Assembly (NCBI GenBank): GCA_008632985.1
Contig: QPGO01000084.1
Span: forward strand, 62,001-126,000
Direction of reading: 5' to 3'
Source: Psammoneis japonica
Lineage: Eukaryota
DNA: 64,000 nucleotides
Shown: positions 31,320 to 54,000 of the stretch, one piece after another
How the letters are laid out: the number at the start of each line of letters is the position of its first letter
How positions within the stretch are numbered: position 1 is the first letter of the stretch
The notes under the pieces: generated by a model
Database searches by the model: none
What the model was told of the DNA's origin: nothing
What the model saw: only the letters and a program-made list of their open reading frames with translations
Translations under genes and position numbers: made by a program

Positions 31320-31985
31320 TTGTGCAATGGGGTGTACAAAGATGTCGGAGGTTGGCAGCAATATCAACAGCAACAGAGACAAACAGACTTGTCAAAGTCG
31401 TTCTCTTGAGATTATGGCAAAAGTTCGTTGGTGATTTTGAAAAAGCGACTTGTTTTCGGCTAAATAAATCGACGAGTCTGGGTTGTAGTCGTGTTCTATC
31501 TGCGACCAAATGGCGTTGAATCGTGACTGTCATGACCCAACAAGAGTTCTTGCAAATCACATGGGAAATGTTGTAAGACTGAAGCCTGCGCAATGGAAAG
31601 GAAAATTGTGACCTACTTTTCGAGGAGTCGAGGCGCATTGCGTCAATCAGAGGTCCGCAACATGACTGACTGAGACGACGTGTCGAAATGCTGCGAAGAG
31701 GGAATGACGAGGAAGAGCTCAATCGGTTGGCAGTCGAGTTGATGGGCTTGTCACATGAATCCGGAGTCCCCTGCGCCAGAGTGCATGATTCCTCGAACTT
31801 CGTAAGACGAGTTTACAGTGAGTGGTCCCGACCATGTCCCCACAGCTCACCCCGAAGTCATTGATCTCACGGGAACCGACAACGAAGTTATTGATCTCAC
31901 CGAAGCCGACAACGAGGTTGTTGATCTCACTGAAAGCGATGACCAAGATGATAAAAGAGAACAAGAAGCGACGGAAACCAGATGA
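31320..31985 (+). pseudogene. Degraded gene fragment ending in three tandem SUMO-interacting-motif-like peptides; partly paralogous to 36110-36320 and 43185-43395
   Basis: EVIDLTGTDNEVIDLTEADNEVVDLTESDD at about 31855-31945; upstream frame has stops. Confidence 0.4.
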
Positions 31986-34900
31986 ATGACGTCAGTTCTC
32001 TCCACTGGAGTGTTTGTTGCAATCTATGCCAACTTTCATTGTGGACAGTTTTTGTTGCGTGGAGTGGCGGTTTTACATCCTTTTTGCCATGCGAAGTGGG
32101 CTCTCTTGCGCTCCAATGTTATTGCGCATTCCGTGGCGTCTAGCAACAACCATTGGGACCGGGGTTTTATGCCGGCATTGCAGTCGACCACCCGACTCCA
32201 AAATTGATTGACATGAGTGTTTGTTATTTATCATTCCGTCCGGATCTCTAGGGCTGCTACTAGTTTGAATACCTTGGCCGGGACATAAACATCTCTGTGG
32301 GATCTAGGCTGTTGTAGAGAGATCTGAATAGAAGCCACAGCTGACGTTGGCCATTGTAGATCATCAGCGATGAGGTCGAGAGTTCAAGTTATTGGAATCG
32401 GCGGCCACTGCATCCCCGTCGATCCAACAACGACGGTCTCTGTTGTGATGATTCTATGGACACCGGTGAACACATTAATGGCTTGACGGCTTGCTGCTCG
32501 TTTTGCTTCTCTACTTCTGCATGTGCCGAACACGCGGATAGAGCGAAGAAGTCTAATGACGCATGGACAGACCGTGTTGGAGGGAGTTTCTGAATTTTCG
32601 AAAATTTTTGTACCGGAAGCCTCTGTACCAGGTGGATTGCACTGTACACGCGAAGTGTTTTTATACTCTCTACTCTAGAGTATTCGCCACGATCGCTGAA
32701 CACAGCAACAGAAAACAAGTAAAAACAACAACACGGAGCGTTCCTCTCGCAGCTACGGTGCAATTGGAAATAAACAAACCAAGAAGTTGTCCCTTCTGTG
32801 GAATCGACTGACTGCTGTTGCCGTGACGAGCCTTGAGAATCTGCAATTACGAGCACACCTGCTGGCATTACATGTTGTGTATTGTGGCCCCACTGGGTGT
32901 CACTTTTTGCTCACGACCATTGAAGAAAAGAGTTGAAGCGCAATACTGTAGCTCCTTTAAAAGACCAAGGCGGATCAGCTATTGATCTGGTTCTTGCAAT
33001 AAGAGAAATGCTGATTGCTCCAGCAGCGGTGTGTAGGCCTCCAGATTCATCGTTGGAATTGAACATGTCCCAGTCAGGCATACAGATTTCCCAGATAAAG
33101 AGTGAATTGTATGCACGGTGGGACTAGCCTCTGCATCTATACAAATTCTCGGTTGAATGACGCATGCAGTTTATATAACTAAAGCTGCTGTCCTGAAAGG
33201 CAAACCTTTTTGACACGGAATGCTCTAGAGCAGGCGCATACAGGCTAGCAATGCGACTACGCCGCTAAGCAATGTCGTTTGTTGTCGAAGGGAGCTTCTG
33301 ATACTTTATGGGAAACCACAAGATACTAATACTGATCGTTCCAACTACAATGACAAATTGGTCTTTTCAAGACGACGACTCATGAGAAACGACACCACGG
33401 CAGTCACCAATACGAAACTCAGATACTCAAGGCGACTTGACGAAACAATTGACTGCATACGTACAATCACTCCCGCTTCTACCGTCATCCATGAATGCCC
33501 TGCCCTGCTCGAGGTGGAACACAAAAGCACGAGCACTCTATGGATCTTTCGCAGTTTTATCAAGAACGGAAACCGAATTGAAACGCGCATGTGGTATACC
33601 GTAGTGTTGGACGACGCGACACAACCGGAAAGCCAGAAACTCACAAGTGTTGTTTTTGTCCTTGACGTCCGAAAGCGGGGTGCCGATCAATCCTTACTAC
33701 CGGACGTGTTTGCCGTCTTGACGGGACACGATTTATGATGATTCAACCGCAATACATTGCCACCACGAAGGCCACGTCGTGTCGATTTACACATATCCCA
33801 TGGCGTCTGACTCCATCACTTCAATACAGGGTACAAGACGTGGGGCTCTCAAGGTGCCGTGCATAACAAAAAGCAGTTCCCACCGTCACCGACACGTCAA
33901 GAAGCCACTGGCTGTGGACTTTTACTATATTTTCTTGGAGCTATGGGATGTACCAAAGCAGTTTGTCAAGGGCACGAGTACGGTCTTGAGAGCGGCTTTG
34001 CGACAAGTCGATTCGATGGCCAATGCATCTAACAAGGTGAATTTTCTGACAAACTCCTCGTTATTGCCGATGTTAGAACAATTGCATCATGTAGCCGACA
34101 TGACAACAATGACGAAATATCACGTGGAGCCCGTCGATGATACAAACCGTGGTGCTGAACCAAACACAAGTACTGATACAGATGCAGTTGACTGACCCAA
34201 ACCAATCTTTGGGGGGTTGGTAGTGTCGGGTTTGACGCGATTAGCCCAGCATGTGCTGATGGACGTGAAACGCCTTGGAGCGCGGTGTTGATGTAGCAAC
34301 AAGCATCGTAGCTGAGCGAGCTTCGAAACCCGGTTCGCTTCTTGGATGCTCCAGCCACGTTGGTGCATTCATCCTCGATAGAACAACAGTTCTAGTAGAC
34401 TCTTGACTGCAACTTGACAACAGGCTTGTATCGTTGCTGCCTTTCACAAAATGTACTGTCACGGCGAAAGCAAGGAGTACATAGACGGAACAGATGGGTT
34501 GATATTCCGGCTACTGCATCGACCTGACGTATCCGTTGCCACGTCTTCCTCTTCATCGCCAGTGCGGTGTTGATGTAGCAACAAATTTCGTAGCGGAGCG
34601 AGCTTCGAAACGTGACTAGCTTCTTGGATGCCTATAGAACAATAGTTCTTGCAGATTTGTAGACCCCCGTCTGTAACTTAACATTAGGGCCCTAGGCATG
34701 AATCGATACTGCCTTTCGCAAAATGTACTGCCCAGACAAAAGCAAGATGTAGATAGACGGAACGGATGGGTTGATATTCTGGCTAGTGCTGGATCGTCCT
34801 GACGTACCCCGTTGCCACTGCAACAGCCGCATGAAACTAATGGTAGAATACGGTAGTAGGACGCATGTATTGACGCGGTAGTCTAGCGCTCCTTCCAACA

Positions 34901-35075
34901 CTTTGGAATGCTGTAACATATCCGTCAGAGAACTTTAGCAATTGCAAAAGAGCATTACAATACAAGATACACAAAAATCACATCAATCGTTTCTATAGTT
35001 CTACTTTCTAGATGTAGTGTAGTCTACAATATCTGTTCGTTTCTCTCGCTCGGATCGAGTGGCGAAATCAGAAGA

Positions 35076-35410
35076 GTGGCAACAGACGTAGTCGCCGCAC
35101 AGAAAAAGACATCGTCGTGTTTTTGCAGTCGAGACAATCGACTGCAAATGGAATACTGACTTGAAATATCCAGAGGTGGCAACAGACGTAGTCGCCACAC
35201 AGAAAAAAAGACACCGTCGTGTCGTTGCAGTCGAGACAATCGACTGCAAACGCAATACCGACTTGAAAGACAACGCCGTGTAGTTGCAGTCGAGACTATC
35301 GACTACAAACGCAATACCGACTTGAAATATCCAGAGGTGACAACAGACATAGTCACCGGAGAAATAAGAGCATTGAAAGAATGCATCATCTTGTAGTTGC
35401 AGTCGAGTCG
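35076..35410. repeat. Array of palindromic units (second copy at 42150-42484)
   Basis: TTGCAGTCGA-GACAA-TCGACTGCAA hairpin at about 35123, 35225 and 35284, partial at 35396. Confidence 0.8.
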
Positions 35411-37551
35411 ATCAACCACAAACACAATGCCAACTTGAGAGATCAGCAGGCCCAAGGTGGCGACAGAATGCAGACACCAAAGAACCTAAACAGGGGATTG
35501 GAAGTAGCGGCTGGCTTCTTGTCTCCCTCCGGAGTGACGTCCATGCTCTCTTGTTGATCCCTCGCCTCCCGGCGATTGGGATGTAGGGAGGCTTTGCATT
35601 ATTGGGTGGCACAGCAAAGTTGAAAGTGTTGGAGCATACAGCAGCGGCCGCTTTGTCGTTGGTATCACCAAACCCGGGAGCGTTCACCGCGGCTGGAGCA
35701 GCAGTGGCCGCATTGTCGTTGGCAACAGTAGTGGTGCCAAACATGGTTGAGTCAGTAGGGTCAGCCACGTCCGGGCTCCAACCAACCAAGCGGGTAGGAG
35801 TGGCTGGAGCCGAGCTAGATGGAAACCCGGGAGAATCCGGTGAGGAAGAGCGGAGCGGTTCAATGGACCACGGGTCAGCTTCGCCTATTTGTGGCGCGAA
35901 CTTGCATCCCGCCAGGAGAAAGTCGTCCCAACCTGACAGTTGGAAATAAATCGCAACAAGCCAAAAAAAACGTCTTGTAACTGTAGTCTACATTGTGCAA
36001 GATTCGACCGATGGGAAAAGTTGCGCTGTGGAACGCTCCCTTGCCCTTGATCTGCGTCATGTGAGCGGGCATGGACGGACGAGACTATTTTTGGAGGATT
36101 TGTCGCACAAAGATCTTGGAGGTTGACAGCAATGGCAACAGAGACATTAACACTTGTCAGAGTTGTTCTCTTGAGATTGTGGCAAAAGTTCGTTGGGATT
36201 TTGAAGAAGGGCTGAATTGAAAATACCGGCAACCATCATCATGGGGTTGCAGTCGTGTCCCATCTGCGACCAAATGGAGTTGAATCGTGACTGTCGTAAT
36301 TTGATGCGTGCGCAATTGAAAGAAAGCAGGCCCCCTACGGAAACGGTGCCCTGTCGGTCTTGTATCCTAGCTGTCGTTGTTGTTGCTGCTGTTGTTTCGC
36401 TTTGTGTCGTTGCTCAGAACATGATGGAGTCCTTGGCGACTCCAAGTCATTCACGATGACAGGGAAATGCTCGAATGCAGCAATGGAGAAGCGGGGCCGG
36501 CTGCTGGCAGGTTGGTCTCCGACGACCCTGCTCGAAGGGTGGCAGCTGTCAAAACGTAGACTGTTTGCATGATTTCTTCGAGCGTGAAGACCAAGCATCT
36601 GTAAAAAAGTCCCGCTGAGTTCAAAAGGCTCTCAAACTAGACACCAGAACCAGCTTTTACCTCTCTCGGTTCGGCTGCAGCAAGCAGCCGTCATGTGCCA
36701 TCATTTCAGCACGCGCAGCATCGAAACAGCTGCTCAATCTCATCCACGCATCCTTTGAACGGCCCACTTTCCTTTCAACGCATTGGCGAAAGCGCGTTCC
36801 GTCACTGTCTTTTCCCAATCACTGAGTTCCGATAGAATCTTGTTCTTGTTTGTCGACAGGTCCACACAGCAGGGCAGCACCTTCTCCACCACAGTGGAGC
36901 GATTGCAATCAGATGAAACGCAAACTGCGGAAACGCAGCAGTCACATGAAAATTTGGAGGCCATTGCTTCTGCAATGCATTCGGCCACTTTTGGTTGATC
37001 AAAGTCAGAGTCGACCATTTGATTGTTTTTCCATGGTCAGCTGGCGTCATGCTGTCAATGCCGTCTCCCAATCACGATCGTTTGCTCTTTTTTTGACAAG
37101 ATCGTAATCATTGATAGATTCGTCCAATTCCTTGAGCAGAAGCGCCATGGAAGGCGTTGGTGGCTCCAAGGAGGGCGGAATGACCACATCTTCTTCTTCT
37201 TTCTGCCAACCACCACTGTGCTCGTGCGGCGATCCTCCAAATGCAGCAAAAGGTGATGAATGCGCAAGGGGTTCAGAAATGTTTGTGCCGTCCACAAAGC
37301 CAGCAGAAGGCTGCTGTTCGGAGGGTTGGGGGATGCGCCTGCTTGGAGGAACGGGTCCGGCTTTCACGGGGATTTCAATCTCGGGGTTGTCAATGCAACA
37401 ACCTGTCTTGACAACAATCTTGATTGCGTGTCGACACGAAATGAGTTTTCCTGTAAATTTGTCATTGGCGTCCTGTCAAACGTGGTTTGAAATGCGAAAA
37501 CAACAAGGGCGAGCTCCACATGGGCAATTGCCCACAGAGAAGACATTGGTC

Positions 37552-38438
37552 TTACCGTGCGACCGCACCAGAGTGCGTGCCATTCTCCAGCTCCTTTTGA
37601 ACATCTTGAAAGTCCTCCATGCTGCTTTTAGTGGATGCAGTTTCCCAAGCAAACTGGGGAAAGTCGACCGTCGCTAGTGTACGAACTTTAAATTCGCGGT
37701 GGCTCTGCGCAGACCATTCGAGTGTTTCTTGGGGGGTTGCTTGGATGGCAGTCACTGCAACGGTGGCGTGATTTTCGCAAGACATGCGAACTTTTGTCAC
37801 GCTCTCTCCCTTGTCCAACATGGCATCTTGTGCGCGTGCTCAGAAGAGAATCTGTCCTCGATTCCAGCAACAACACGAGCGGACCTGTTTCTCAACGGGC
37901 TCTCCGCGTTGTGGTGGCGCTTCCTTTGCAGGGGCTTTGCAACAATTGTCACTGGTTGCTTGGCTTTGTAGTCGCTAATCCATCCAGACCCTTTTAGCTG
38001 TGCACGCATTTCACAGGCAATGCTGCATTGGTCGGAAAACGAACGCCCCGTAGCCTCCATGGACGATGGCAACCCTTCTGGCAGATTCACTTGGAACTTC
38101 ATCTGGTGCCTTCCCACCTGGATCCCACTGTTTGCAATGACGTTTTCGTCAAGCGGTGTGTTAATTTGGATCAATGGTCGTGTCGCTTCTGGCATGCGCA
38201 TGTGACGATCTTGTTGTTGTGTGTCGCCTGATGATTGATGTACGTCTTCGCACTCCACCTTTGCGATTTCACATCCTTCCAGCAAAGCAACACATTCTTT
38301 CGCCGACACTTCCTTGTTAATGTCAAGGTGGACACTTCCCTCCAGCATCATGGAGCCTGCTTGAAAAATGCTCGATTCTATGGAGAGAAAGAGAGACGCA
38401 AATGTGACAATTACGTGAGAAAACCGGTGCTGGAACAT
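37552..38438 (-). pseudogene. Arrestin-domain gene, degraded, copy 1
   Basis: LEGSV.LDI...G.E...FQVNLPEGLPSSM...IA.EMRAQL Arrestin_N-like pattern; frameshifted; Tyr positions changed to Cys/His. Confidence 0.6.
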
Positions 38439-39215
38439 GTCCTGAACACCATCACTTCATCGTAAAAAATGAGCTGCCAATGCGGCGAGACGAAGAGAAA
38501 CTCACTCAAGCAGATCCCGAGAGGCATGGCACTGTTTCCAAACGAGCAGATTGCAGCTGCTGTGCAGAAATGAGCATCACGCTGATTGGAGCAACATCAG
38601 CGAGGATGAAAATGTCGCAGGTTCCCAGCGAAATGAGTGTCACGCTGATTGGAACAAGTTGTCGCTGATGTTGTTCCGAACAACATCAGCGAGGATGCAA
38701 GTGTCGCAGGTTCCTCTGCTAAAGAGCGGATGGGATGCTCAGTGCTCCTGTGCTGTGAAAGATCCTGATTGATTCTTCCTGACAGATGCCGGCATTGTCA
38801 TTGCGACGACGTCGAGCGAGATCGCTCCAGCTGACAAAAAAGAATTTGAAATTCCGACGTAGAGACGAGCAGCAATTGCCCCTTGAAGAAAGCCACGTCA
38901 TGCAGTGCTGCACTGCACTTGAAGTGATGACGTGTTCAGATGCTTCCATCATCTTTTCGCTCTCTTTCGAAACAAACACGACACGACACTTCGTGACCGT
39001 GCGATGAAACCTCCCCCCCCGTCCCGTTGCTGTAAACAATGCCTGCAGCATGACTCCAGTGGCCTCTCTAGCGAATCGCATTTGCTGCGTTTGATGAGCA
39101 ACAAAGGCAATGACAGTGCTTTTACCGTTCCCACTTGGGTGATGTTCCTGTTTGGTGTGGTGGCGAGACATTTTGTTCCTCATTTTCTTTTTGATTCTTC
39201 AGATCAATCTCGTCT

Positions 39216-39878
39216 TTGCTGGCATCTATCGGGCCATGTTGGTGCTCACATTTCCCACGCATGTTTTCACACGAGCCGGTTGTGCCATCAGTCTTGCACA
39301 CAGTCTTGGCTGCTGCTCCATCTCTGCTCTGGACACGCATCGCAAAGAGCTTGGTGTCTAGCATGACACAAGTCTCATCGATTGGATGCCTTCGGAAACA
39401 CGACGCCGTGGCCAACGTCATTCGCGATCAAAAGGTGGAGGCCATGATCATTCGGGCGTTTCTGGTCTTGCGCAAGGTTCTTTGCTCTGTGGAATCCGCT
39501 ATTGAGGGACGCCAAGATGCTACAACCACTTACAAGCATGAGCCTTTTGGCGAATTTACGAGAAGTTTGTCGACCCTGACGTCCAGGGAGGTGGAACGGA
39601 CGTTCAATGCTCTCGAAGAAAACAGCGACGGGCTGTTGGAGCCCAAAGAGTTCGCATGTTTACTCAACAAACTTGGCATTCCAATCACCATGGAAATGTC
39701 CAAAAAGATTGTCCAAGAGCTTGACACAGACGGGGACGGATTTGTGAGCAAAGATGAATTCATGATCTTTTACGAGCAATGTGTCGTCCAGAATAAAACC
39801 ACGCCATTCCCAAAGGAGAAGACAGAAGCATTGTTTGAGATGTTTGATGCCGATGGCAGTGGAGAGATCACAACATAA
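39216..39878 (+). pseudogene. EF-hand protein fragment, copy 1
   Basis: ELDTDGDGFVSKDEF, and FDADGSGEITT* truncated within the loop. Confidence 0.65.
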
Positions 39879-42800
39879 GGAGACGCTCGAAACCTTTTCC
39901 TTGGGCTTGCGTGAGCGCGGTGAAGACGGCAGTGGCACCATGCACTGGACATCTACAATGAAATGGGAGTGGAGCGAATTAGAGACGGCGAGTGCACTGG
40001 AAGAAATGCAGGAGCGTTCACTTGGATGCGTCTCTTGGGTGTAACGGGATTCATACTTGCCACAGGGCGCCCAAGGTCTCAAGGCGGTGATAAAATGCAA
40101 GCTTGGGCATGATCCAGTCGAGGTGGACACGGAAGACATGGTGCAAGTTGCGCAAGAACGACCGGTCGACATGGCGACCCATTCTGCGTCGGAAACCTGT
40201 GCCGACCTTTTCTCTCTATGAAAGCATGTTTACATGTTTATCTTTTGCATTTGCACCGTCATTCCCATGGGACCCGAAGGTGTCTTGCGCGAAGGGAGTG
40301 GCACTCTGTGTGAAACATTGCTCATGGTTCAAGCCGCAAAGAAAAATGTCGTTTGTCCCAACAAGCAAGTTGACGCCTTGGCCATCTTTCACGATGGGCA
40401 ATTACTGGAAGGTGAAACGTATGTTGGTAGAAAGGTGTGCATGGTGTCTCGAGACGGGTGTCTGTCGCTCGAACGTGGTTTGCAAGTTTGACTTGAAACC
40501 GAGCGCGTTTCAAGGTTTGATTGACAGTGTTGATCGGTGCCGGTTTCTTACCTTTGCGATTGAAATGGAGGGTGGTATGGATCGGACCTAGATTTGCAAC
40601 TATGATTAGGTACCGGTAAGTTCTTGTTGTTGATTAATGTTCTGCAGTTTTAGTGTTGTACTCGCGGTTTGCTGTCGTTTCCCCCCCTGTCAGATTCGTT
40701 GTCAGATTGTCGAGCAGCTCGAGATGCTTCGTGATCGACTCAGTTGGGTGGAAAAGCCGTATGTTTCCTACGCACGCACAAAAGCCAAACGTTCTTGGTG
40801 ACCTTTTCCTACGTTTACGGTGTAAAAAGCTAATAGGCCTCTGTCAAATATCTTGTTTTGTTTTCGTGGATGATAGACTTATCGCGAAACATGCAATTGA
40901 GCAACGTAGTTACTGAAACTGATGTTGTTTGTGGTATATCATAATCCATGATTTCTATACCTAAGCGCCTTCTGAACGGAAGTATGCAATTAGGAAGCAC
41001 TTCGTGAGAAGTAGGGACGGTAGCGCCGCTTTCTAGAGTCCAATTTGTACGTGTTCGTTCTCCCTTGAATTAAACCATCAGTACAGTCGCCCTGATGCTC
41101 AAAATACCGTATTTTCCCGTCATTTAAACCACCCCACAGAGTCGCTTTCCGTCATAGCCGCCATGAGTTGTCCAATCACATTGGCAGCCAGATTACATTT
41201 TTCACATGGTGAACGCAACAACTCAACCATCATGTTTAGATTGAACTCTGGGAGCTTGACATCGAAAACAGTCATTCATTTGATGTGCTTCAAAGCACTG
41301 CACTGTGCTTGGTGGAGCAATTGAGAGATGCCATTTTGTGGCATTGTGCACCTCAGAGACTTTAAACAGCAAAGAGGTTGACCATTGAAAAGGAAAGAGG
41401 TTGACAATCAAGTGGTGATTGGGTTTGCCAATTTCTGAAAATTGTGAAAATGACAATTGTGATGCTTGGCAACCAACAGCCAGAAGAAAGAAATGCTTGA
41501 GGCAGCTTCTTTTTGCAGCTGAATGTGAACTGTCACGGCGAAAGCAAGGAGTACATAGACGGAACAGATGGGTTGATATTCCGGCTACTGCATCGACCTG
41601 ACGTATCCGTTGCCACGTCTTCCTCTTCATCGCCAGTGCGGTGTTGATGTAGCAACAAATTTCGTAGCGGAGCGAGCTTCGAAACGTGACTAGCTTCTTG
41701 GATGCCTATAGAACAATAGTTCTTGCAGATTTGTAGACCCCCGTCTGTAACTTAACATTAGGGCCCTAGGCATGAATCGATACTGCCTTTCGCAAAATGT
41801 ACTGCCCAGACAAAAGCAAGATGTAGATAGACGGAACGGATGGGTTGATATTCTGGCTAGTGCTGGATCGTCCTGACGTACCCCGTTGCCACTGCAACAG
41901 CCGCATGAAACGAATGGTAGAATACGGTAGTAGGACGCATGTATTGACGCGGTAGTCTAGCGCTCCTTCCAACACTTTGGAATGCTGTAACATATCCGTC
42001 AGAGAACTTTAGCAATTGCAAAAGAGCATTACAATACAAGATACACAAAAATCACATCAATCGTTTCTATAGTTCTACTTTCTAGATGTAGTGTAGTCTA
42101 CAATATCTGTTCGTTTCTCTCGCTCGGATCGAGTGGCGAAATCAGAAGAGTGGCAACAGACGTAGTCGCCGCACAGAAAAAGACATCGTCGTGTTTTTGC
42201 AGTCGAGACAATCGACTGCAAATGGAATACTGACTTGAAATATCCAGAGGTGGCAACAGACGTAGTCGCCACACAGAAAAAAAGACACCGTCGTGTCGTT
42301 GCAGTCGAGACAATCGACTGCAAACGCAATACCGACTTGAAAGACAACGCCGTGTAGTTGCAGTCGAGACTATCGACTACAAACGCAATACCGACTTGAA
42401 ATATCCAGAGGTGACAACAGACATAGTCACCGGAGAAATAAGAGCATTGAAAGAATGCATCATCTTGTAGTTGCAGTCGAGTCGATCAACCACAAACACA
42501 ATGCCAACTTGAGAGATCAGCAGGCCCAAGGTGGCGACAGAATGCAGACACCAAAGAACCTAAACAGGGGATTGGAAGTAGCGGCTGGCTTCTTGTCTCC
42601 CTCCGGAGTGACGTCCATGCTCTCTTGTTGATCCCTCGCCTCCCGGCGATTGGGATGTAGGGAGGCTTTGCATTATTGGGTGGCACAGCAAAGTTGAAAG
42701 TGTTGGAGCATACAGCAGCGGCCGCTTTGTCGTTGGTATCACCAAACCCGGGAGCGTTCACCGCGGCTGGAGCAGCAGTGGCCGCATTGTCGTTGGCAAC

Positions 42801-44619
42801 AGTAGTGGTGCCAAACATGGTTGAGTCAGTAGGGTCAGCCACGTCCGGGCTCCAACCAACCAAGCGGGTAGGAGTGGCTGGAGCCGAGCTAGATGGAAAC
42901 CCGGGAGAATCCGGTGAGGAAGAGCGGAGCGGTTCAATGGACCACGGGTCAGCTTCGCCTATTTGTGGCGCGAACTTGCATCCCGCCAGGAGAAAGTCGT
43001 CCCAACCTGACAGTTGGAAATAAATCGCAACAAGCCAAAAAAAACGTCTTGTAACTGTAGTCTACATTGTGCAAGATTCGACCGATGGGAAAAGTTGCGC
43101 TGTGGAACGCTCCCTTGCCCTTGATCTGCGTCATGTGAGCGGGCATGGACGGACGAGACTATTTTTGGAGGATTTGTCGCACAAAGATCTTGGAGGTTGA
43201 CAGCAATGGCAACAGAGACATTAACACTTGTCAGAGTTGTTCTCTTGAGATTGTGGCAAAAGTTCGTTGGGATTTTGAAGAAGGGCTGAATTGAAAATAC
43301 CGGTGACCATCATCATGGGGTTGTGGTCGTGTCCTGTCTGCGACCAAATGGAGTTGAATCGTGACTGTCGTAATTTGATGCGTGCGCAATTGAAAGAAAG
43401 CAGGCCCCCTGCGGAAACGGTGCCCTGTCGGTCTTGCACCCTAGCTGTCGTTGTTGTTGCTGCCATTGTTTCGCTTTGTGTCGTTGCTCAGAACATGATG
43501 GAGTCCTTGGCGACTCCAAGTCATTTACGATGACAGGGAAATGCTCGAATGCAGCAATGGAGAAGCGGGGCCGGCCACTGGCAGGTTGGTCTCCGACGAC
43601 CCTACTCGAAGGGTGGCAGCTGTCAAAACGTAGACTGTTTGCATGATTTCTTCGAGCGTGAAGACCAAGCATCTGCAAAAAAGTCCCGCTGAGTTCAAAA
43701 GGCTCTCAAACTAGACACCAGAACTAGCTTTTACCTCTCTCGGTTCGGCTGCAGCAAGCAGCCGTTATGCACTGTTATTTCAGTGCGCGCAGCATCGAAA
43801 TGGCTGCTCAATCTCATCCACGCATCCTTTGAACGGCCTGCTTTCCTTTCAACGCATTGGCGAAAGTGCGCTCCGTCACTGTCTTTTCCCAATCACTGAG
43901 TTCCGACAGAATCTTGTTCTTGTTTGTCGACAGGTCCACACAGCAGGGCAGCACCTTCTCCACCACAGTGGAGCGATTGCAATCAGATGAAACGCAAACT
44001 GCGGAAACGCAGCAGTCACATGAAAATTTGGAGGCCATTGCTTCTGCAATGCATTCGGCCACTTTTGGTTGATCAAAGTCAGAGTCGACCATTTGATTGT
44101 TTTTCCACAGTCAGCTGGCGTCATGCCATCAATGCCGTCTCCCAATCACGATCGTTTGCTCTTTTTTTGACAAGATCGTAATCATTGATAGATTCGTCCA
44201 ATTCCTTGAGCAGAAGCGCCATGGAAGGCGTTGGTGGCTCCAAGGAGGGCGGAATGACCACATCTTCTTCTTCTTTCTGCCAACCACCACTGTGCTCGTA
44301 CGGCGATCCTCCAAACACAGCAAAAGGTGATGAATGCGCAAGGGGTTCAGAAATGTTTGTGCCGTCCACAAAGCCAGCAGAAGGCTGCTGTTCGGAGGGT
44401 TGGGGGATGCGCCTGCTTGGAGGAACGGGTCCGGCTTTCACGGGGATTTCAATCTCGGGGTTGTCAATGCAACAACCTGTCTTGACAACAATCTTGATTG
44501 CGTGTCGACACGAAATGAGTTTTCCTGTAAATTTGTCATTGGCATCCTGTCAAACGTGGTTTGAAATGCGAAAACGACAAGGGCGAGCTCCACGCAGGCA
44601 ATTGCCCACAGAGAAGACA

Positions 44620-45512
44620 TCAGTCTTGCCGCACGACCGCACCAGAGCACGTGCCATTCTCCAGCTCCTTTTGAACATCTTGAAAGTCCTCCATGCTGCT
44701 TTCAGTGGATGCAGTTTCCCAAGCAAACTGGGGAAAGTCGACCGTCGCTGGTGTACGAACTTTAAATTCGCGGTGGCTCTGCGCAGACCATTCGAGTGTT
44801 TCTTGGGGGGTTGCTTGGATGGCAGTCACTGCAACGGTGGCGTGATTTTCGCAAGACATGCGAACTTTTGTCACGCTCTCTCCCTTGTCCAACATGGTGT
44901 CTTGTGCGCATGCTCAGAAGAGAATCTGTCCTCGATTCCAGCAACAACACGAGCGGACCTGTTTCTCAACGGGCTCTCCGCGTTATGGTGGCGCTTCCTT
45001 TGCAGGGGCTTTGCAACAATTGTCGCTGGTTGCTTGGCTTTGTAGTCGCCAATCCATCCAGACCCTTTTAGCTGTGCACGCATTTCACAGGCAATGCCAT
45101 GTTGGTTGGAAAACGAACGCCCCGCAGCCTCCATGGACGATGGCAACCCTTCTGGCAGATTCACTTGGAACTTCATCTGGTGCCTTCCTGCCTGGATCCT
45201 GTTGTTTACAATGACGTTTTCGTCAAGCGGCACATTAATTTGGATCAATGGTCATGTCGCTTCTGGCATGCGCGTGTGACGATCTTGTTGTTGTGTGTCG
45301 CCTGATGATTGATGCACGTCTTCGTGTTCCACCTTTGCGATTTCATGTCCTTCCAGCAAAGCAACACATTCTTTCGCCGATGCTTCCTTGTTAATGTCAA
45401 GGTAGACACTTCCCTCCAGCATCATGGAGCCTGCTTGAAAAATGCTCGATTCTATGGAGAGAAAGAGAGACGCAAATGTGACAATTGCGTGAGAAAACCG
45501 GTGCTGGAACAT
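44620..45512 (-). pseudogene. Arrestin-domain gene, degraded, copy 2
   Basis: Duplicate of 37552-38438 with independent substitutions and an extra stop. Confidence 0.6.
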
Positions 45513-46334
45513 GTCCTGAACACCATCACTTCATCGTAAAAAACAAGCCACCAATGCGGCGAGACGAAGAGAAACTCACTCAAGCAGATCCCGAGAGGCA
45601 TGGCACTGTTTCCAAACGAGCAGATTGCAGCTGCTGTGCAGAAATGAGCATCACGCTGATTGGAGCAACATCAGCGAGGATGAAAATGTCGCAGGTTCCC
45701 AGCGAAATGAGCATCACGCTGATTGGAACAAGTTGTCGCTGATGTTGTTCCGAACAACATCAGCGAGGATGCAAATATCGTAGGTTCCTCTACTAAAGAG
45801 CGGATGGGATGCTCAGTGCTCCTGCGCTGTGAAAGATCCTGATTGATTCTTCCTGATAGATGCCGGTGTTATCATTGCGACGACGTCGAGCGAGATCGCT
45901 CCAGCTGATAAAAAAGAATTTGAAATTCCGACGTAGAGACGAGCAGTAATTGCCCCTTGAAGAAAGCCACGTCATGTAGTACTGTACTGTACTTGAAGTG
46001 ATGACGTGTTCAGATGCTTCCATCATCTTTTCGCTCTCTTTCGAAACAAACACGACACGACACTTCGTGACCGTGCGATGAAACCTCCCCCCCCGTCCCG
46101 TTGCTGTTAATAATGCCTACAGTATAACTCCAGTGGCCTCTCTAGCGAATCGCATTTGCTGCGTTTGATGAGTATCAAAGGCAATGACAGTGCTTTTACC
46201 GTTCCCACTTGGGTGATATTCCTGTTTGGTGTGGTGGCGAGACATTTTGTTCCTCATTTTCTTTTTGATTCTTCAGATCAATCTCGTCTTTACTGGCATC
46301 TATCGGGCCATGTTGGTGCTTATATTTCCCATAC

Positions 46335-46952
46335 ATGTTTTCACACGAGCCGGTTGTGCTATCAGTCTTGTATACAGTCTTGGCTGCTGCTCCGTCTCTA
46401 CTCTGGACACGTATCGCAAAGAGCTTGGTGTCTAGCATAACACAAGTCTCATCGATTGGATACCTTCGGAAACACGACGCCGTGGCCAACGTCATTCGCG
46501 ATCAAAAGGTGGAGGCTATGATTATTCGGGCGTTTCTGGTCTTGCGCAAGGTTCTTTGCTCTGTGGAATCCGCTATTAAGGGACGCCAAGATGCTACAAC
46601 CACTTACAAGCATAAGCCTTTTGGCGAATTTACGAGAAGTTTGTCGACCCTGACGTCCAGGGAGGTGGAACGGACGTTTAATGCTCTCGAAGAAAACAGC
46701 GACGGGCTGTTGGAGCCCAAAGAGTTCGCATGTTTACTCAACAAACTTGGCATTCCAATCACCATGGAAATGTCCAAAAAGATTGTCCAAGAGCTTGACA
46801 TAGACGGGGACGGATTTGTGAGCAAAGATGAATTCATGATCTTTTACGAGCAATGTGTCGTCCAGAATAAAACCACGCCATTCCCAAAGGAGAAGACAGA
46901 AGTATTGTTTGAGATATTTGATGCCGATGGCAGTGGAGAGATCACAACATAA
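46335..46952 (+). pseudogene. EF-hand protein fragment, copy 2
   Basis: ELDIDGDGFVSKDEF and FDADGSGEITT*. Confidence 0.65.
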
Positions 46953-49843
46953 GGAGACGCTCGAAACCTTTTCCTTGGGCTTACGTGAGCGCGGTGAAGA
47001 CGGTAGTGGCACCATGTACTGGATATCTACAATGAAATGGGAGTGGAGCGAATTAGAGACGGCGAGTACACTGGAAGAAATGCAGGAGCGTTCACTTGGA
47101 TGCATCTCTTGGGTGTAACGGGATTCATACTTGCCACAGGGCGCCCAAGGTCTCAAGGCGGTGATAAAATACAAGCTTGGGTATGATCCAGTCGAGGTGG
47201 ACACGGAAGACATAGTGCAAGTTGCGCAAGAACGACCGGTCGACATGGCGACCTATTCTGCGTCGGAAACCTGTGCCGACCTTTTCTCTCTATGAAAGTA
47301 TGTTTACATGTTTATCTTTTGCATTTGCACCGTCATTCCCATGGGACCCGAAGGTGTCTTGCGCGAAGGGAGTGGCACTCTGTGTGAAACATTACTCATG
47401 GTTCAAGCCGTAAAGAAAAATATCGTTTGTCCCAACAAGCAAGTTGACGCCTTGGCCATCTTTCACGATGGGCAATTACTGGAAGGTGAAACGTATATTG
47501 GTAGAAAGGTGTGCATAGTGTCTCGAGACGGGTGTCTGTCGCTCGAACGTGGTTTACAAGTTTGATTTGAAACCGAGCGCGTTTCAAGGTTTGATTGACA
47601 GTGTTGATCGGTACCGGTTTCTTACCTTTGCGATTGAAATGGAGGGTGGTATGGATCGGACCTAGATTTGCAACTATGATTAGGTACCGGTAAGTTCTTG
47701 TTGTTGATTAATGTTCTGCAGTTTTAGTATTGTACTCGCGGTTTGCTGTCGTTTCCCCCCCTATCAGATTCGTTGTCAGATTGTCGAGCAGCTCGAGATG
47801 CTTCGTGATCGACTCAGTTGGGTGGAAAAGCCGTATGTTTCCTACGCACGCACAAAAGCCAAACGTTCTTGGTGACCTTTTCCTACGTTTACGGTGTAAA
47901 AAGCTAATAGGCCTCTGTCAAATATCTTGTTTTGTTTTCGTGGATGATAGACTTATCGCGAAACATGCAATTGAGCAACGTAGTTACTGAAACTGATGTT
48001 GTTTGTGGTATATCATAATCCATGATTTCTATACCTAAGCGCCTTCTGAACGGAAGTATGCAATTAGGAAGCACTTCGTGAGAAGTAGGGACGGTAGCGC
48101 CGCTTTCTAGAGTCCAATTTGTACGTGTTCGTTCTCCCTTGAATTAAACCATCAGTACAGTCGCCCTGATGCTCAAAATACCGTATTTTCCCGTCATTTA
48201 AACCACCCCACAGAGTCGCTTTCCGTCACAGCCACCATGAGTTGTCCAATCACATTGGCAGCCAGATTACATTTTTCACATGGTGAACGCAACAACTCAA
48301 CCATCATGTTTAGATTGAACTCTGGGAGCTTGACATCGAAAACAGTCATTCATTTGATGTGCTTCAAAGCACTGCACTGTGCTTGGTGGAGCAATTGAGA
48401 GATGCCATTTTGTGGCATTGTGCACCTCAGAGACTTTAAACAGCAAAGAGGTTGACCATTGAAAAGGAAAGAGGTTGACAATCAAGTGGTGATTGGGTTT
48501 GCCAATTTCTGAAAATTGTGAAAATGACAATTGTGATGCTTGGCAACCAACAGCCAGAAGAAAGAAATGCTTGAGGCAGCTTCTTTTTGCAGCTGAGTCA
48601 ACAAAGATGAGCACACACCAGGGGCTTGTGGAGAACAGGAAGTTCTTGAATGCACAAAGTGAGAAGAGAGTCAGTGCACCACTCTTGCTTGTTTTGAATC
48701 TTGGGCAACCCTCTTCAGGTGGTGCACTCATTGGTTGACATCACTTTTTGCTCTGTGCTGGCTGGTTGAGAGGTTGGTGGCATTTTCATGATTCGCAGCT
48801 TGAGGCATGTTTTGATGCATGAGCACATCATGTGCAACGCCACCTTCAGAACATGCTGCTTGCCAGATCCAGAGTCAACAGCTCTCTGTGCTCAAGCTTT
48901 GCCAGCCAGACTTTTTGTCACAATGCACCTCTTCTCCTGTCACTGTGGTTGCCTCCATCAAAGCCCAAAGTCCACACAGCCCTGGCCATCTACAAAGCAC
49001 TCCTGCAGAACTTTTCTGCCAGCTTCCCTTGCACAAAGCAGCTCTTGGCAACAGCTCCACCCACGTGCTGGGCTGCAGCAAAAGACTGTCTTCCAAGCTG
49101 CCACATGAGGTGCCCAACTTGTTGGGGTTGTGCCAAGCTCTTCACATCACAAAACAAGGTGTTTCTGGCACTGGTGATGGCAATGTGGAGCCCTTCCTGT
49201 GCAGCTTTGCAGGGGCATGGATGCCTCCAGAGTGCCAGTCCAGCCACAAGCATCATGCCATCCTTGCCAGTGCTTTGCCAGCAGGGTGCAGCGCCAAAGC
49301 TGCCTGAGGAGCCTTGGACACCAGCAGATCAATGCCAGCGCAGTGCCGCTGGCACAGAGTGCAAGCTGGCTGGACTGCCCTGCCCCACACATGGTGCCCC
49401 CCTTTTGCAACTGGCAAGTGCCAACCTGATGGACACGCTGTCATGAAAACTCCCTGAGCCAAAGCAGGAGCTGGCATGTGAGCCCCTGTTGCCCCCCAAA
49501 ATGCCACGAAGCTGCAAAATGGCACAAGCATCCTCAAGCTTGCTTGTCCGTGCCACAGGCCAATTTGTTGACACACCACTCTGCCCCCCCCCCCCCCCCC
49601 CCCCCAGCACAAGTGGGAGAGTGCACTTTGCCGTGGCTCTGGCTGGAATGACAGATGTGGCTGCACTCCACACAAACAACAATGCATGCCCTCAAAGAAC
49701 AGCCAGTTGAAGGTGCTTTCTCACACAGCTGGCTGACACTTTCCTGTGGTTGACTGTCAAAAAAGAGCAAAGGTCAAGAAGGACAGATCATCAGCTGCAG
49801 CAGAGCATGAGCTCCCCACTGTGCTGTGCCCAGCCAAGGCACT

Positions 49844-50119
49844 TGACAGGATTTGAACAGGATTTAGGTGCGCGCGAAGTATCGCGCGCTGTTTAGTTTA
49901 CCGTGCACAGTTTTGTGTGCTTTAGTTCCGCGCGTTCACGCGCGATGTAGTTTGCTTTCGAGCCACAAGGCTCACAAGAATAATAACAGTAGCCCGATTA
50001 TACCGACTTACACGTCTTTCGGCTCCTGTAACGGTCTCTGAGCGGAGACTCATCTGCTATTTAGACAGCAGTAAGGAGTTATTGTTTGAATTCTTGCCAT
50101 TTGCCTTCAATTTCTATCA
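49844..50119 (+). repeat. 5' LTR (276 bp)
   Basis: TGACAGGATT...TTTCTATCA; matches the 3' LTR with 18 transitions and no indels. Confidence 0.95.
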
Positions 50120-51061
50120 GATTAACAGTCTTGCTCATTGTCAACCCATTGAGCAACCGCCATCGTCGTCGTTGATTTACCAACGACGCTATTTTTTTAA
50201 TTCTACGTGGACCTCCGTATATATTCTACATACATCGGCGAGTCTACGCGCATTCAATACCAGGGCATCGGCAGGAAGTTAACGTCACCGTCAAGTCTCC
50301 TTACCGCTGGATATCTGGATTGATTATACTACCTTTGATCGCTGAAGACATACATTCAACGGTCATATCCAAGTCTATCCTTGATCCTCATCCCTTGATG
50401 TACCTGTTCATCGGTTAACGGTCAAGAACCCTGCATGTTCAAGGATCTTCGTCGCTGAAGACATGTGTATATATACATGTCTTCACGGCCAAGAACCTGT
50501 ACCCACTCTTCGGACTGCGGTTTTGCCACCACTCTACAAGCACACCGAGTCCATTGTACCTGATCTACCCCGGACTGCTGGTGCTCTGCAGTTCTACTAG
50601 GTCCACGAGGACGACTGTGAGAGCAAGCAGCCGTGATTGCAGCCTGCGTTGGGGCGAGGGTGCTTTCCCGCGTTTGTTCGTTCGTCCACAGCGCCTGACG
50701 CCTGCGTCAACTGGCCAGCCTGATCGGGAAATCCAACCGACATAAAACAAGAACGGCTCGGGGGTCTTGTCCACCTCCAGTCAGCTCACCTGCAGGGGTT
50801 TACAACCCGCTGCTCCGCTCGCAAGCAACCCAAAGCGCCGCCAGCTGTGGGTTCGGACGTGCCGGCACAACTCTACGGACCGGACAGGAAGTTTGGCACT
50901 TGACAACAAACAGGATGACAAAGCCCGGCGACTTCTGATTTTAAGACAGTTCAAGATTTCAAGTCAAGTCCATTTCAAGTCAAGTCCATTCTCACCCAAG
51001 TTTCGAGTCTGCCTTCGCTTCCCAACCAGAATTGATTGTCCTGACACCATTTTTGTCTGCC

Positions 51062-54000
51062 ATGGTTCTCACTCGTCAGCAACAAACCGATGGTTTCGAG
51101 CACGTGGTTGGAACCGTGCTTGCCCAAGGTGCTGGGAGTCCTCTTCGTTTGGCTTTGGCCCAAGACGGCACGGACTCATGTCAGGAACTGTTCACGTTCA
51201 CACCGTCCCAAATCGACTCGCTTGAGTGCGACAACGGCGCTGATGCAATCCCTTTGCCCCGTGGTCATGAGAACATGTTAGCAGCACTGGTCAGTCTGTA
51301 CATTGTTAAAGCACACAAAGGTCTTGACGTTGCCAACGACTCCTCTTTGTTCACGCATGACGAGTTCCTTGCCCACCGCCTCAGCCCCGACCACATGTCT
51401 TCTGTGTCCATCGGCAGCTCACCCCTTGCACCTCCACATGTCACCAACCCGACCAAGGCACGCGACCCGGTGCGGGACTTCAAGCGAGGCATCAAGCGTG
51501 ATCCCACTGCTTTCACGGCTCTCAAATCCGACAAGCAGTGGCACACTTGGCACACCTCACTTGTGGCACAAGCCCATGCCCAAGACGTCGAGTGCACTCT
51601 AGACTCGTCGTACAAACCGACCAGCCCCGAAGACAAACTGCTCTTTGCTGAACAGCAAAAGTGCATGTTCGCCGTCTTCGAACGCATCCTTCTCACCGAC
51701 AAGGGCAAGGCTCTCATTCGCGAAAATGTGGGGTCTTCTGACGCACAGACCGTCCACCACTCCTTGTCTGAGTGCGCGCTTGCCTCCACCCGCGCATCTG
51801 TCGAGTCCTCCACCCTGCTCACGTGCCTCACCACCGCGCGTCTTGGTGATGGCACTTGGAAAGGTCCGACCCACGGGTTCATCCTTCATTGGCAAGATCA
51901 GCTGCGCAAGTGCGAGGCACTCATCCCGGCCAATGACCACTTCTCTGAAGGACAGAAGCGCGTCATGCTCGAGAATGCCGTGCACCCTGTCGAGGAACTC
52001 CGTGCTGTCAAGAACCAAGCTGATCAGCATCGCACGCAGAGTGGCAAGAGCCTCACATGCGATCAACACTGTGGCTTGCTCCTCTCCGCGGCAGCTCAGT
52101 GTGACAGCACGTTTCAACCCAAGACGACACCTCGAGCTCCCCGACGCGCCATGTGCGCACACGACGTCTGCTCCGAGGAACCGTCCGACGATGTGTTCTA
52201 CGACATTGACAGCGACGTTGACGTCCTTCAAGCCAATGCTGCCTGCACCCGCGGTCCCAGCCTCACCGGTGTCCAATGGAGACGTCTCCCTCCCAACCAC
52301 CAATGGCTCTGGGATTCGTTGCCCGATTCCTCCAAGGCGATCATCCTTGAGCATTCTCGTCCACCTCCCCGCAACCCGCGAGCCAGCAACTGCCATGAGT
52401 CTGTTACGGCCAACCTTCACGACCAACGCCTTGGGAGTGACGGTGATGTCCACTTGTCCAACACGACTCCTGCTGACTCTGGTGACTCCGCCCCACATGT
52501 GGACGCCACTTCGGATGATCCCATCCTGGCGCACCTCACCAAGCGCACGCCACTGCCACCCGGTGATCTGCAACGTCTGTTGTCTCCTGACCAAGCCCCC
52601 AATGCCAGTCGACCGGGGCCATCCGCCGCTTCCTCTGCCCCGCCAGCTTCTGCAGATGACACAGAACTCAACGGCGCACTTGCCGCCGCGTTGACAACCA
52701 CAATGTCATTTGCTCTGCCTCTGCTCATCGATCCACACGCACTGGCGCTCCAGTCGATCGTGGGGCCAACGGCGGCATTGCTGGCGACGACGTTCGCGTC
52801 ATTGCACGCACCTCTCGCCAAGTCGACGTTCAGGGCATTGACGATCATCAATTGGCAGACATCCCCATTGTCACCGCTGGTGCCGTCATTGAGACCCAGC
52901 ATGGTCCCGTCATCGCCATCCTCCATCAGTGCGCATGCACGGGAAAGGGCAAGACCATCCATTCCTGCGGCCAGCTCGAATGGTGCAAACAGGATGTCAA
53001 CGATCGCTCTGTCAAGGTGCCCAACGGCTTGCAACGTGTTGCCACTCCTGATGGCCATGTCATCCCCATTGACATCAAGGCTGGCCTGCCTTGTGTTGCC
53101 ATGCGACCTTGCACTGACGCCGAATGGGACACCCTGCCCCATGTCGTCCTCACCGGTGATGACACATGGGACCCTTCCGTCCTCGATCACTCTGTCACTG
53201 ACGACGACCAGTGGCACGACGCGATCTCTGACCCACAGGACGATCCCACTGCCAACCTGTTTGACGAGTGTGGCAACTGCCGTCATCGTGTCGTTGTCAA
53301 CGAGACCATCTTGTCCGCTTCCTTGTCTGCCGATCACGCGTCCGCCCTCGATGATCACCTCATTCCGAACGACGACATGTTCTGCGAATGTCATCTGCAT
53401 GCGATTGCCCCCCAGGGCGATGACGTTCCACCTCCGGAGCGCACTGTGCAGCCCAAGGATCCCCCCTTCGAGTCTCTTCGGCCTTGCTTTGGCTTCCTGC
53501 CTGCCGATGCGGTCCGTCGTACTTTTGACTGCACCACGCAGTGCGCCCGCATGCCCGCCGGCACACACCTTCGCAAGGCCTGCAAATCACCCAACCCCGC
53601 CCTTAATGTGCACCGCCGCAACGAGCCTGTCGCCACTGACACCGTTTGTGCCGACACCCCGGCCGTCGACTCTGGCTGCACCAGCACCCAACTGTTTGTT
53701 GGCACCGAGTCTACCGTCACTGACGTCTGCGGCACTGAGACGGACAAAGAGTTTGTCAACACACTCGAGGATCAGATCCGTGCACGTGGTGCCCCATCCA
53801 AACTCATCAGCGACCGTGCTCAAGTTGAGATCAGCAACAAAGTGCTCGGGATCCTGCGCGCCCTCTTCATCTCTAGCTGGCAAAGTGAGCCTCACCAGCA
53901 ACACCAAAACTTTGCCGAGCGTCGATGCCAGACCGTGAAGCGCATGGCGAACACTGTCATGGATCGTTTTGGTTCGCCCGCCCACACATGGCTGCTGGCG

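Follow-up and report, generated by a model that had tools for sequence, protein, structure and literature searches.

Apparent region-targeted TpA hypermutation of a tandem duplication in Psammoneis japonica

We examined a 64,000-nucleotide stretch of Psammoneis japonica DNA (GenBank assembly GCA_008632985.1, contig QPGO01000084.1, positions 62,001 to 126,000 of the forward strand; hereafter the window, in which position 1 is the first letter) that contains a 7-kb segment repeated in tandem. Judging from its sequence, we put at roughly 0.8 the probability that a segment holding host-gene remnants was duplicated in tandem, and that a region-targeted process acting on DNA then hypermutated TpA to CpA or TpG in both copies and in other tracts of the window. 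The segment, with its arrestin-like and membrane/EF-hand remnants, would have duplicated first. TpA would afterwards have become CpA or TpG, which are one A:T-to-G:C change viewed from either strand, over 4.5 kb of copy 1 and 2.6 kb of copy 2, each copy losing ∼60–75% of the TAs there. A site with CA in one copy facing TG in the other would then record opposite-strand hits at the same ancestral TA, and with a process that is specific to TpA and close to saturation, the same TA would often have been struck in both copies. The pattern of the changes, their polarity, their timing on DNA after duplication and integration, their tract-like distribution and their flank preference were read directly from the comparisons below.

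The two copies and their ancestral state

The unit is 7074 bp long, and its two copies are 98% identical with no indels, both in a self-comparison at an offset of 7074 and by BLAST. Three filler nucleotides (41523–41525) lie between the copies, and a transversion (34454/41528) distinguishes them near the unit start. The X2 read-derived contig 40868–41636 crosses the junction, with 386 letters to the left and 111 to the right of 41525/41526, and the X1 contig terminates exactly at 41522. Word depth is 117–120 in long contigs within the unit versus 59 in a contig over the downstream flank, figures that are crude since they come from contigs, which cover parts of the stretch. The gap-free identity, the bridging contig and the doubled depth support the 7-kb tandem duplication proposed in an earlier sequence-only reading of this DNA as real. 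Alternative letters appear in the read contigs at nine places, and eight of these are cross-placed letters of the other copy. At the ninth (36375), a CpG in a low-complexity GTT/GCT-rich stretch, one read contig has T where both copies have C; this T may stem from a third allele or from a paralogue. To the left, where the unit is unmutated, it also holds, at 35102–35442 and again at 42176–42516, four repeat copies at 59–113-bp spacing, each with a short inverted repeat.

Over 34460–41500 we counted 161 differences between the copies. Tabulation of the spectrum gave 158 transitions and 3 transversions, with 152 of the 161 differences in pyrimidine–purine (YpR) dinucleotides and 9 outside them. 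Within the mutated span (36226–40700), 150 of 158 differences fall in YpR, against 49% of positions (binomial P ∼7e-37). The left 1.78 kb of the unit has one difference and the right 0.8 kb has two, the remaining 158 lying between 36230 and 40689 (∼4.5 kb). About 88% of the differences are of the TA type, and about 8% involve CG.

We divided the mutated span into zone A (36226–38660) and zone B (38661–40700), in copy 1 coordinates. CA in one copy faces TG in the other at 31 aligned dinucleotides, 30 of them in zone A and one in zone B; they include the pairs 36230/43304, 36250/43324 and 36261/43335 that had been pointed out earlier, and the 23-mer difference described at 36690 is likewise present. 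Besides its 30 CA/TG sites, zone A has 16 shared TAs, 20 sites where only one copy keeps TA, facing CA or TG (11 and 9), 129 CGs common to both copies and 9 sites where CG faces CA or TG. Zone B is one-sided: 54 sites read CA or TG in copy 1 and TA in copy 2, the reverse never occurs, and 35 TAs are shared, which means that 54 of 89 TAs were changed. The observed/expected (obs/exp) ratio of TA is 0.19 in zone A of both copies and 0.29 in zone B of copy 1, and it is ordinary in the zone-B equivalents of copy 2 (0.65; 38690–40700) and in the identical flank (0.67). Beyond its own tract (45869–48596), copy 2 keeps its TAs.

The sequence-only reading had inferred that the CA/TG sites descend from TA and not from CG. 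A CG ancestor can be excluded because 129 CpGs stand intact in both copies beside only 9 single CG changes; under a CG-ancestor model ∼0.07 opposite-strand double hits are predicted, versus 30 seen (Poisson P ∼3e-67). Residues in related proteins also support TA. Five arrestin-like relatives (P0001–P0005, 24–62% identical over the aligned segments) served as outgroups for zone A. All five have Tyr where copies 1 and 2 read CAC/TAC, Ile (ATA) where they read ACA/GTG (Thr/Val), and Leu where they read CTA/CCA, the latter giving Pro in copy 2. The codon pair TGC/CAC (Cys/His) faces Y F Y Y Y, AGC/GGC faces Ser in three of the five, and GAT-GCC/GAC-ACC faces Asp-Thr. At six columns with Tyr in at least three of the five relatives, the copies read H/Y, C/H, H/H, C/C, Y/Y and Q/stop. 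Over 497 residues the copies have 2 and 4 tyrosines, compared with 9–16 in the four full-length relatives and 9 in the 289-residue P0005. When the ancestor is rebuilt with TA, and with CG where CG faces CA/TG, its summed BLOSUM fit over 26 informative columns is 43.6, compared with 1.1 for an all-C-to-T ancestor, 27.3 for copy 1 and −1.2 for copy 2.

Two sites in the arrestin-like protein, which reads LLEGCEIAKVECEDV in copy 1 and LLEGHEIAKVEHEDV in copy 2, had been taken to imply an ancestral Tyr. Both readings are present, and the relatives back Tyr at one Cys/His site (Y F Y Y Y) but are uninformative at the other (K E E V E). The retention of TA at 31486 and 31497 in a third paralogue was confirmed, over ∼200 bp that are 77% identical. 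Taken together, the CA/TG pairs and the TA ancestor bear out the claim that both copies were hit independently, after duplication and on DNA, in host-gene-derived sequence.

In zone B the outgroup evidence comes from residues 16–226 of the EF-hand frame, aligned with 34 longer proteins found by an exhaustive search. Copy 2 has Tyr and copy 1 His at residue 19 (F in 22 relatives, Y in 3) and at residue 35 (Tyr in 23 of 29 non-gap relatives). At residue 31, where the relatives are hydrophobic, copy 2 has Leu and copy 1 Pro. Copy 2 shares Tyr with its closest relative P0019 at residue 22 (Arg in copy 1), and with the close relatives P0028 and P0086 at residue 65 (Cys in copy 1). Summed over 12 columns, the fit is 6.4 for copy 2 versus 2.7 for copy 1. 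Copy 1 was the query that retrieved these relatives, so any bias opposes the reading of copy 2 as ancestral.

The arrestin-like remnant consists of four segments in three frames, with one in-frame stop common to both copies, and the EF-hand frame ends (39876) at a frameshift found in both, after which reading resumes in another frame to ∼40040. Since these frameshifts and the stop are common to both copies, the unit probably held remnants already at the time of duplication. With the EF-hand frame as query, word matching turned up no homologue, the exhaustive search matched many longer proteins, and an Atlas search returned only generic EF-hand clusters with scores below 0.9. For the arrestin family, the closest Atlas cluster is commonest in diatoms. 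The proposal that host-gene-derived DNA was targeted stands insofar as both remnants have cellular relatives; functional host genes would go beyond the evidence, given the shared frameshifts and stop.

Several observations weigh against this account. Copy 1 scores higher than copy 2 on the EF-hand_7 (58.3 vs 55.6 bits) and EF-hand_1 (49.7 vs 46.2) profiles, and its Ser at residue 18 and Thr at residue 178 are also present in relatives. Because these favour copy 1, the polarity of zone B rests on the five columns above plus composition. A stop-codon simulation in zone B was non-discriminating (P = 0.23 for the absence of new stops under the C-to-T direction). Within the duplication, ∼13 differences are CG versus CA/TG (9 + 3 + 1). 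By comparison with the relatives, copy 2 has at least three C-to-T changes at CpG (a stop for Arg at 38180, Cys for Arg at 37836 and Thr for Ala at 36793), and 37952 looks like T-to-C at TpG. Either the process reaches beyond TpA or two processes overlap. Among the shared CA/TG sites at old Tyr codons, some may predate the duplication, and these are indistinguishable from same-strand double hits. Finally, the three read runs are contigs from one sample, possibly the assembly's own, and are not independent material. The CpG component could be attributed to methylated CpG decaying in the ordinary way in silenced DNA, on top of the TpA process: CpG obs/exp is 0.8–0.9 in young tracts and 0.18–0.48 in older ones.

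A copia element, other depleted tracts and the properties of the process

A second pair of sequences with a known starting identity is provided by a copia-type retrotransposon. The two long terminal repeats (LTRs) of such an element are identical at insertion. Here the LTRs (49844–50119 and 56678–56953) are 276 bp long, have TG..CA ends and are flanked on both sides by the 5-bp target duplication GCACT. They differ at 18 positions, of which 15 read TA in the 5′ LTR and CA or TG in the 3′ LTR and three read CG in the 5′ LTR and CA or TG in the 3′ LTR; TA counts are 18 and 3, and CG counts 20 and 17. The interior and the 3′ LTR lie inside a depleted tract and the 5′ LTR lies outside it. All 18 changes run toward CA/TG in the tract-side LTR while the target duplication is intact, which argues that the change took place on integrated DNA. 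Since the LTRs and the copies of the unit each began identical, they show together that TA is ancestral and that the change followed duplication and integration, on DNA. The TpA rule holds for 54 of 54 one-sided TA-type changes in zone B and for 15 of the 18 LTR differences.

In the 1356-residue copia frame, Tyr makes up 0.4%, His 5.2% and Cys 3.8% of residues, compared with 2.4–3.4% Tyr in five host frames. The frame stays open because the process erases TAA and TAG instead of creating them, and for the same reason depleted tracts are open in several frames on both strands. On the plus strand, long open frames over the element run to 997 and 1356 residues, and on the minus strand to 368 and 389. 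The 5′ LTR and the next ∼480 bp (49844–50600, ∼750 bp of the element) have ordinary TA (0.73 for 50001–51000). The element lies in an older tract (48201–49901), where CpG is 0.18.

Across the 64-kb window, TA obs/exp in 1-kb windows is bimodal. Ordinary windows have TA at 0.5–0.8 and CG near 1, and include pyruvate carboxylase and sulfotransferase-like genes. Depleted windows have TA at 0.0–0.2, with CA and TG at 1.5–2.2. Outside the duplication, six depleted tracts with sharp edges total ∼21 kb and have TA obs/exp of 0.05–0.12 (Table 1). One of them holds a second copia-like relic (61451–63982), 67–70% identical to 52834–54821, with TA at 0.05 and CpG at 0.25; the relic is an older target of the same process. 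Another lies in a host-like open reading frame (ORF) on the minus strand (6535–8343) with 2OG-Fe(II) oxygenase, F-box and SUMO-like domains, in which 1.25 kb (6978–8233) have only 3 TAs. Among the 603 residues of this ORF, which stays open, are 5 Tyr, 21 His and 19 Cys; it may be a gene that was hypermutated yet remained open, and the window contains no repeat partner for it. The long TA-free, CpG-poor tracts at 751–3901 and 21351–26201 gave no Pfam match in their open frames.

Table 1. Positions of features in the window
Feature	Position	Strand	Evidence
Tandem unit, copy 1	34452..41522	.	Offset-7074 identity, BLAST
Tandem unit, copy 2	41526..48596	.	Offset-7074 identity, BLAST
Hypermutated tract, copy 1	36230..40689	.	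∼94 TA to CA/TG sites, strands 47:47
Hypermutated tract, copy 2	43304..45868	.	∼42 visible TA to CA/TG changes
Arrestin-like gene remnant, copy 1	36773..38399	-	Pfam Arrestin_N; tblastn with P0001–P0005
Arrestin-like gene remnant, copy 2	43847..45473	-	tblastn
Membrane-segment and EF-hand open frame, copy 1	39195..39878	+	Pfam EF-hand_7 (EF-hand pair)
Membrane-segment and EF-hand open frame, copy 2	46269..46952	+	Pfam EF-hand_7
93-nt GT..AG intron	41047..41139	+	Skipped in the X2 contig that also crosses the junction (41140–41636 segment)
Third paralogous stretch, 77% identical	31336..31531	.	TA kept at 31486 and 31497, opposite CA and TG in the copies
Copia-type LTR retrotransposon	49844..56953	+	RVT_2; LTR alignment; target duplication
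TA-depleted tract	751..3901	.	TA obs/exp scan
TA-depleted tract	6951..8351	.	TA obs/exp scan
TA-depleted tract	21351..26201	.	TA obs/exp scan
TA-depleted tract	48201..49901	.	TA obs/exp scan; CpG 0.18
TA-depleted tract	50601..58251	.	TA obs/exp 0.12, CG 0.86
TA-depleted tract	61451..63951	.	TA obs/exp scan

The two strands are used equally in copy 1, with 47 T-to-C and 47 A-to-G changes. Strand-run tests gave no clear single-strand tracts (42 runs versus 48 expected in copy 1, P = 0.13; 15 versus 21.8 in copy 2, P = 0.02), under an ascertainment that is biased because same-state double hits are invisible. Sites are hit once: a former TA is rarely hit again, and there is one TA/CG site.

The process prefers 5′-TAY-3′ (Y, pyrimidine) and A before T, and CTAG, CTAA and GTAA are mostly spared. 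This preference recurs in three independent comparisons, namely zone B, the LTR pair and the residual TAs of the depleted tracts. With copy 2 taken as the ancestor of zone B, hit rates by the base 3′ of the target A are 0.48 for C, 0.29 for T, 0.18 for A and 0.16 for G, and by the base before T they are 0.50 for A, 0.29 for T, 0.28 for C and 0.14 for G. ATAT was hit at 7 of 7 sites, GTAC at 6 of 8 and CTAG at 0 of 3, and at GTAA/TTAC sites hits are found on the TTAC strand only (6/16). In the LTR pair a pyrimidine stands 3′ of the target A in 14 of 15 events. Among the 88 TAs that survive in the 21 kb of depleted tracts, ratios to ordinary DNA are low for ATAC/GTAT (0.14), ATAT (0.17) and ATAG/CTAT (0.30), while TTAA (3.3), CTAG (2.4), CTAA (1.7) and GTAA (1.6) are enriched. 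The preference is weaker in zone A (3′ pyrimidine in 54 of 80 events), as near-saturation would lead one to expect. Hits in zone A are also non-independent between the copies, with shared TA, single and estimated double sites at ∼16/20/60 versus ∼7/38/51 expected, which fits site-specific susceptibility.

Trigger, chemistry and competing explanations

Under our account of a duplication followed by regional TpA hypermutation, a targeted deaminase would turn adenine in DNA into hypoxanthine, the chemistry proposed for the alga Bigelowiella natans, and targeting would depend on some mark of silenced, foreign or redundant DNA. The sequence-only reading had called the process repeat-induced. As stated, this is not supported: 1.78 kb on the left and 0.8 kb on the right of the repeat are untouched, as are the zone-B equivalents of copy 2, tract edges differ from repeat edges, and the published case is single-copy. 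That duplication was the trigger seems to us doubtful, though not far-fetched.

A little better than an even bet, in our view, is that duplication did not induce the process at all, and that DNA which is silenced, foreign or decaying bears a chromatin or small-RNA mark that drew it to remnants which merely happened to be duplicated. The 2.6 kb of perfect repeat and the half of copy 2 that escaped would follow from such a mark, as would the mismatch between tract and repeat edges, the sparing of the copia 5′ LTR and its next ∼480 bp while the rest of the element was hit, and the tract within the host-like frame at 6978–8233, which has no repeat in the window. The region of nucleocytoplasmic large DNA virus (NCLDV) origin described for B. 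natans in the main text of Mettrop et al. is likewise single-copy (bioRxiv 10.64898/2026.01.13.699255). What speaks for repetition instead is that both copies were hit over the same arrestin-like part, and that every identifiable tract in the window (the duplication and the two copia-like elements) is repeated DNA. A true repeat-sensing defence, a kind of reverse repeat-induced point mutation (RIP) whereby two or more copies direct a 5′-TAY-3′ DNA adenine deaminase that erases TpA, is on balance unlikely. If it existed, it would remove Tyr codons and TAA/TAG stops rather than making stops, and its presence both here and in a chlorarachniophyte would suggest an old and widespread system of the stramenopile–alveolate–rhizarian (SAR) lineage against host-derived duplicates, retrotransposons and viruses.

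The chemistry can also be read from the other base of the pair. Oxidised thymines can mispair with G, and a thymine-modifying enzyme (JBP/TET-like oxidation to 5-hydroxymethyl- or 5-formyluracil) could act on T in 5′-RTA-3′ (R, purine), with T-to-C and A-to-G as one event seen from two strands and the flank preference as a purine that precedes the target T. By sequence, deamination of adenine is indistinguishable from modification of thymine; no sequence feature favours the latter, and the main text of the B. natans preprint names an ADAT2-like candidate, although as a candidate only (10.64898/2026.01.13.699255). We regard thymine modification as improbable.

Rather less probable still is that a single-copy locus was assembled in tandem from two of its haplotypes or population variants, in which case the mutation would be genuine without having followed a duplication. 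The exactly equal length of the copies would be expected in that case, diploidy would be probable if the organism is a diatom, and the contig depths are crude. This is difficult to reconcile with a read contig that joins the end of the unit to its start over 386 + 111 letters, with word depth of 117–120 in the unit versus 59 in the downstream flank, with a junction that has its own 3-nt filler, or with the transversion at 34454/41528.

A RIP-like deamination of cytosine would invert the polarity, with copy 2 undergoing CpA-to-TpA change in 38661–40700 and the CA/TG sites arising from CpG deaminated on opposite strands. Nearly all differences being transitions (158/161), the ∼3-bit advantage of copy 1 on EF-hand profiles, and the three copy 2 changes from CpG to TpG or CpA that the outgroup shows to be real all accord with it, and the TA of the 77% paralogue could be a doubly deaminated CG. 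We nevertheless consider it very improbable. Given 129 intact CpGs beside 9 single CG changes, independent hits would yield ∼0.07 doubles where 30 stand; the all-C-to-T ancestor fits far worse (1.1 vs 43.6); and conserved Tyr, Ile (ATA) and Leu (CTA) codons indicate TA. The affected tracts are TA-poor, the opposite of RIP, while the untouched parts have the ordinary composition of the window, and the LTR pair would need opposite-sense changes in both LTRs.

Some sequencing platforms make systematic, strand-specific errors at modified motifs, which gives some colour to an artefact of base calling or assembly, in which a modified base at TA is misread as CA or TG by a long-read platform; this is scarcely credible, since 31-mer read contigs at depth ∼110–120 reproduce the copy-specific stretches 37055–37378 and 38297–38700 with 0 other letters, the copies differ from each other at the same sites, and the LTR and Tyr-loss patterns fit real change.

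Comparison with known systems, and neighbouring features

The nearest parallel is found in mutation-accumulation lines of B. natans. As reported in the main text of Mettrop et al. (bioRxiv 10.64898/2026.01.13.699255), two integrated viral regions received 231 of the 302 new nuclear mutations; 230 of the 231 were A-to-G or T-to-C, all of those on TpA, at a rate of ∼6e-7 per site per generation and in some lines only. The same text describes 124 genomic clusters of TpA-poor, CpA+TpG-rich windows in which reverse-transcriptase and transposase domains are over-represented, and proposes a DNA adenine deaminase with an ADAT2-like candidate. From the figures given there (211 mutations, 6169 TpA, 3132 generations) we computed ∼1e-5 per TpA per generation, a rate at which ∼70% loss would take ∼1e5 generations, an order compatible with the near-identical unmutated flanks. 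On that text, both cases share a near-restriction to A-to-G and T-to-C on TpA, yielding TpG or CpA by strand, in discrete nuclear regions whose neighbouring DNA mutates at the ordinary rate, and in both, 1-kb windows with little TpA and much CpA+TpG are clustered.

There are also differences from the case as its main text presents it. The targets there are giant-virus and virophage insertions, whereas here they are a host-derived tandem duplication and a copia element; the latter agrees with a foreign origin, and the duplicated unit, with its cellular relatives, is not foreign by content. Ordinary TA is 4.3% here versus 6.0% there and genes here are nearly intron-free, which with the arrestin-family cluster makes the organism here probably a diatom. 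TA obs/exp in affected DNA is 0.0–0.2 here versus 0.45 in the NCLDV region. The TAY/ATA flank preference and the CpG component are described here; flanks are absent from that main text.

RIP in Neurospora and other fungi resembles the present case in producing only transitions in kb-scale nuclear tracts, in affecting both copies of a duplicate as well as transposons, and in having a dinucleotide preference. RIP is triggered by duplication, mutates across the repeated segment, and depends on a RID/DNMT4-type protein and a premeiotic stage. However, RIP turns CpA into TpA and creates TAA/TAG stops, whereas here TpA is destroyed, stops are removed and Tyr becomes His or Cys, and tract edges do not follow the repeat. 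Fungal RIP was rejected on this opposite polarity and on TA being depleted, not raised. ADAR hyper-editing shares clustered A-to-G changes with U/T 5′ of the edited A. ADARs favour G as the 3′ neighbour, in contrast to the pyrimidine seen here. Both strands are used here (47:47), the LTRs of one integrated element have diverged, and the tandem unit keeps its intron, which excludes a retrocopy. Editing fixed by retrotransposition was rejected given the 47:47 strand use and the 18 LTR differences in an element whose target duplication is intact. Deamination of 5-methylcytosine at CpG covers the minor CG-to-TG/CA changes (∼13 in the duplication, 3 in the LTR pair) and the low CpG of older tracts (0.18–0.48); as the source of the CA/TG sites or the loss of TA it was rejected, with young tracts at CpG 0.8–0.9 and ∼0.07 double hits expected.

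In a literature search we found TpA-to-CpA/TpG hypermutation reported in no diatom or other organism except in the B. natans preprint. Term searches of Maumus et al. 2009 (PMC2806351) and of a 2025 preprint on diatom transposable elements (10.1101/2025.10.24.684338) returned no relevant passage and no occurrence, respectively. In the passages retrieved, Hoguin et al. 2023 (PMC9998398) mention RIP only for fungal DNMT4, and Krasovec et al. 2019 (PMC6604790) report an ordinary GC-to-AT bias in Phaeodactylum.

TpA-specific regional A:T-to-G:C hypermutation had thus been reported once before, in a 2026 preprint on one alga. The same signature is probably present here in a different major lineage from B. 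natans, near saturation and on three kinds of target. The two copies and the LTR pair, with their known starting identity, amount to a natural experiment that fixes polarity, timing and flank preference (TAY, ATA), and these provide concrete tests for candidate deaminases and for a duplication trigger. The signature is also a trap for gene prediction: affected DNA lacks TAA and TAG and presents long false open frames in all six frames, proteins predicted from it lose tyrosine, and RIP indices would read it backwards.

Two further features of the window lie outside the tracts discussed above. A tandem array of 93-bp units (63–92% alike) occupies 30177–30818 inside a 327-residue minus-strand frame, which ends in a Tudor-like domain (PTM/DIR17-type) slightly below the Pfam cut-off. 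The pyruvate carboxylase gene (9996–13531) is read in two overlapping frames (9996–12002 and 11852–13531), which suggests a short intron or a frame change near 11900.

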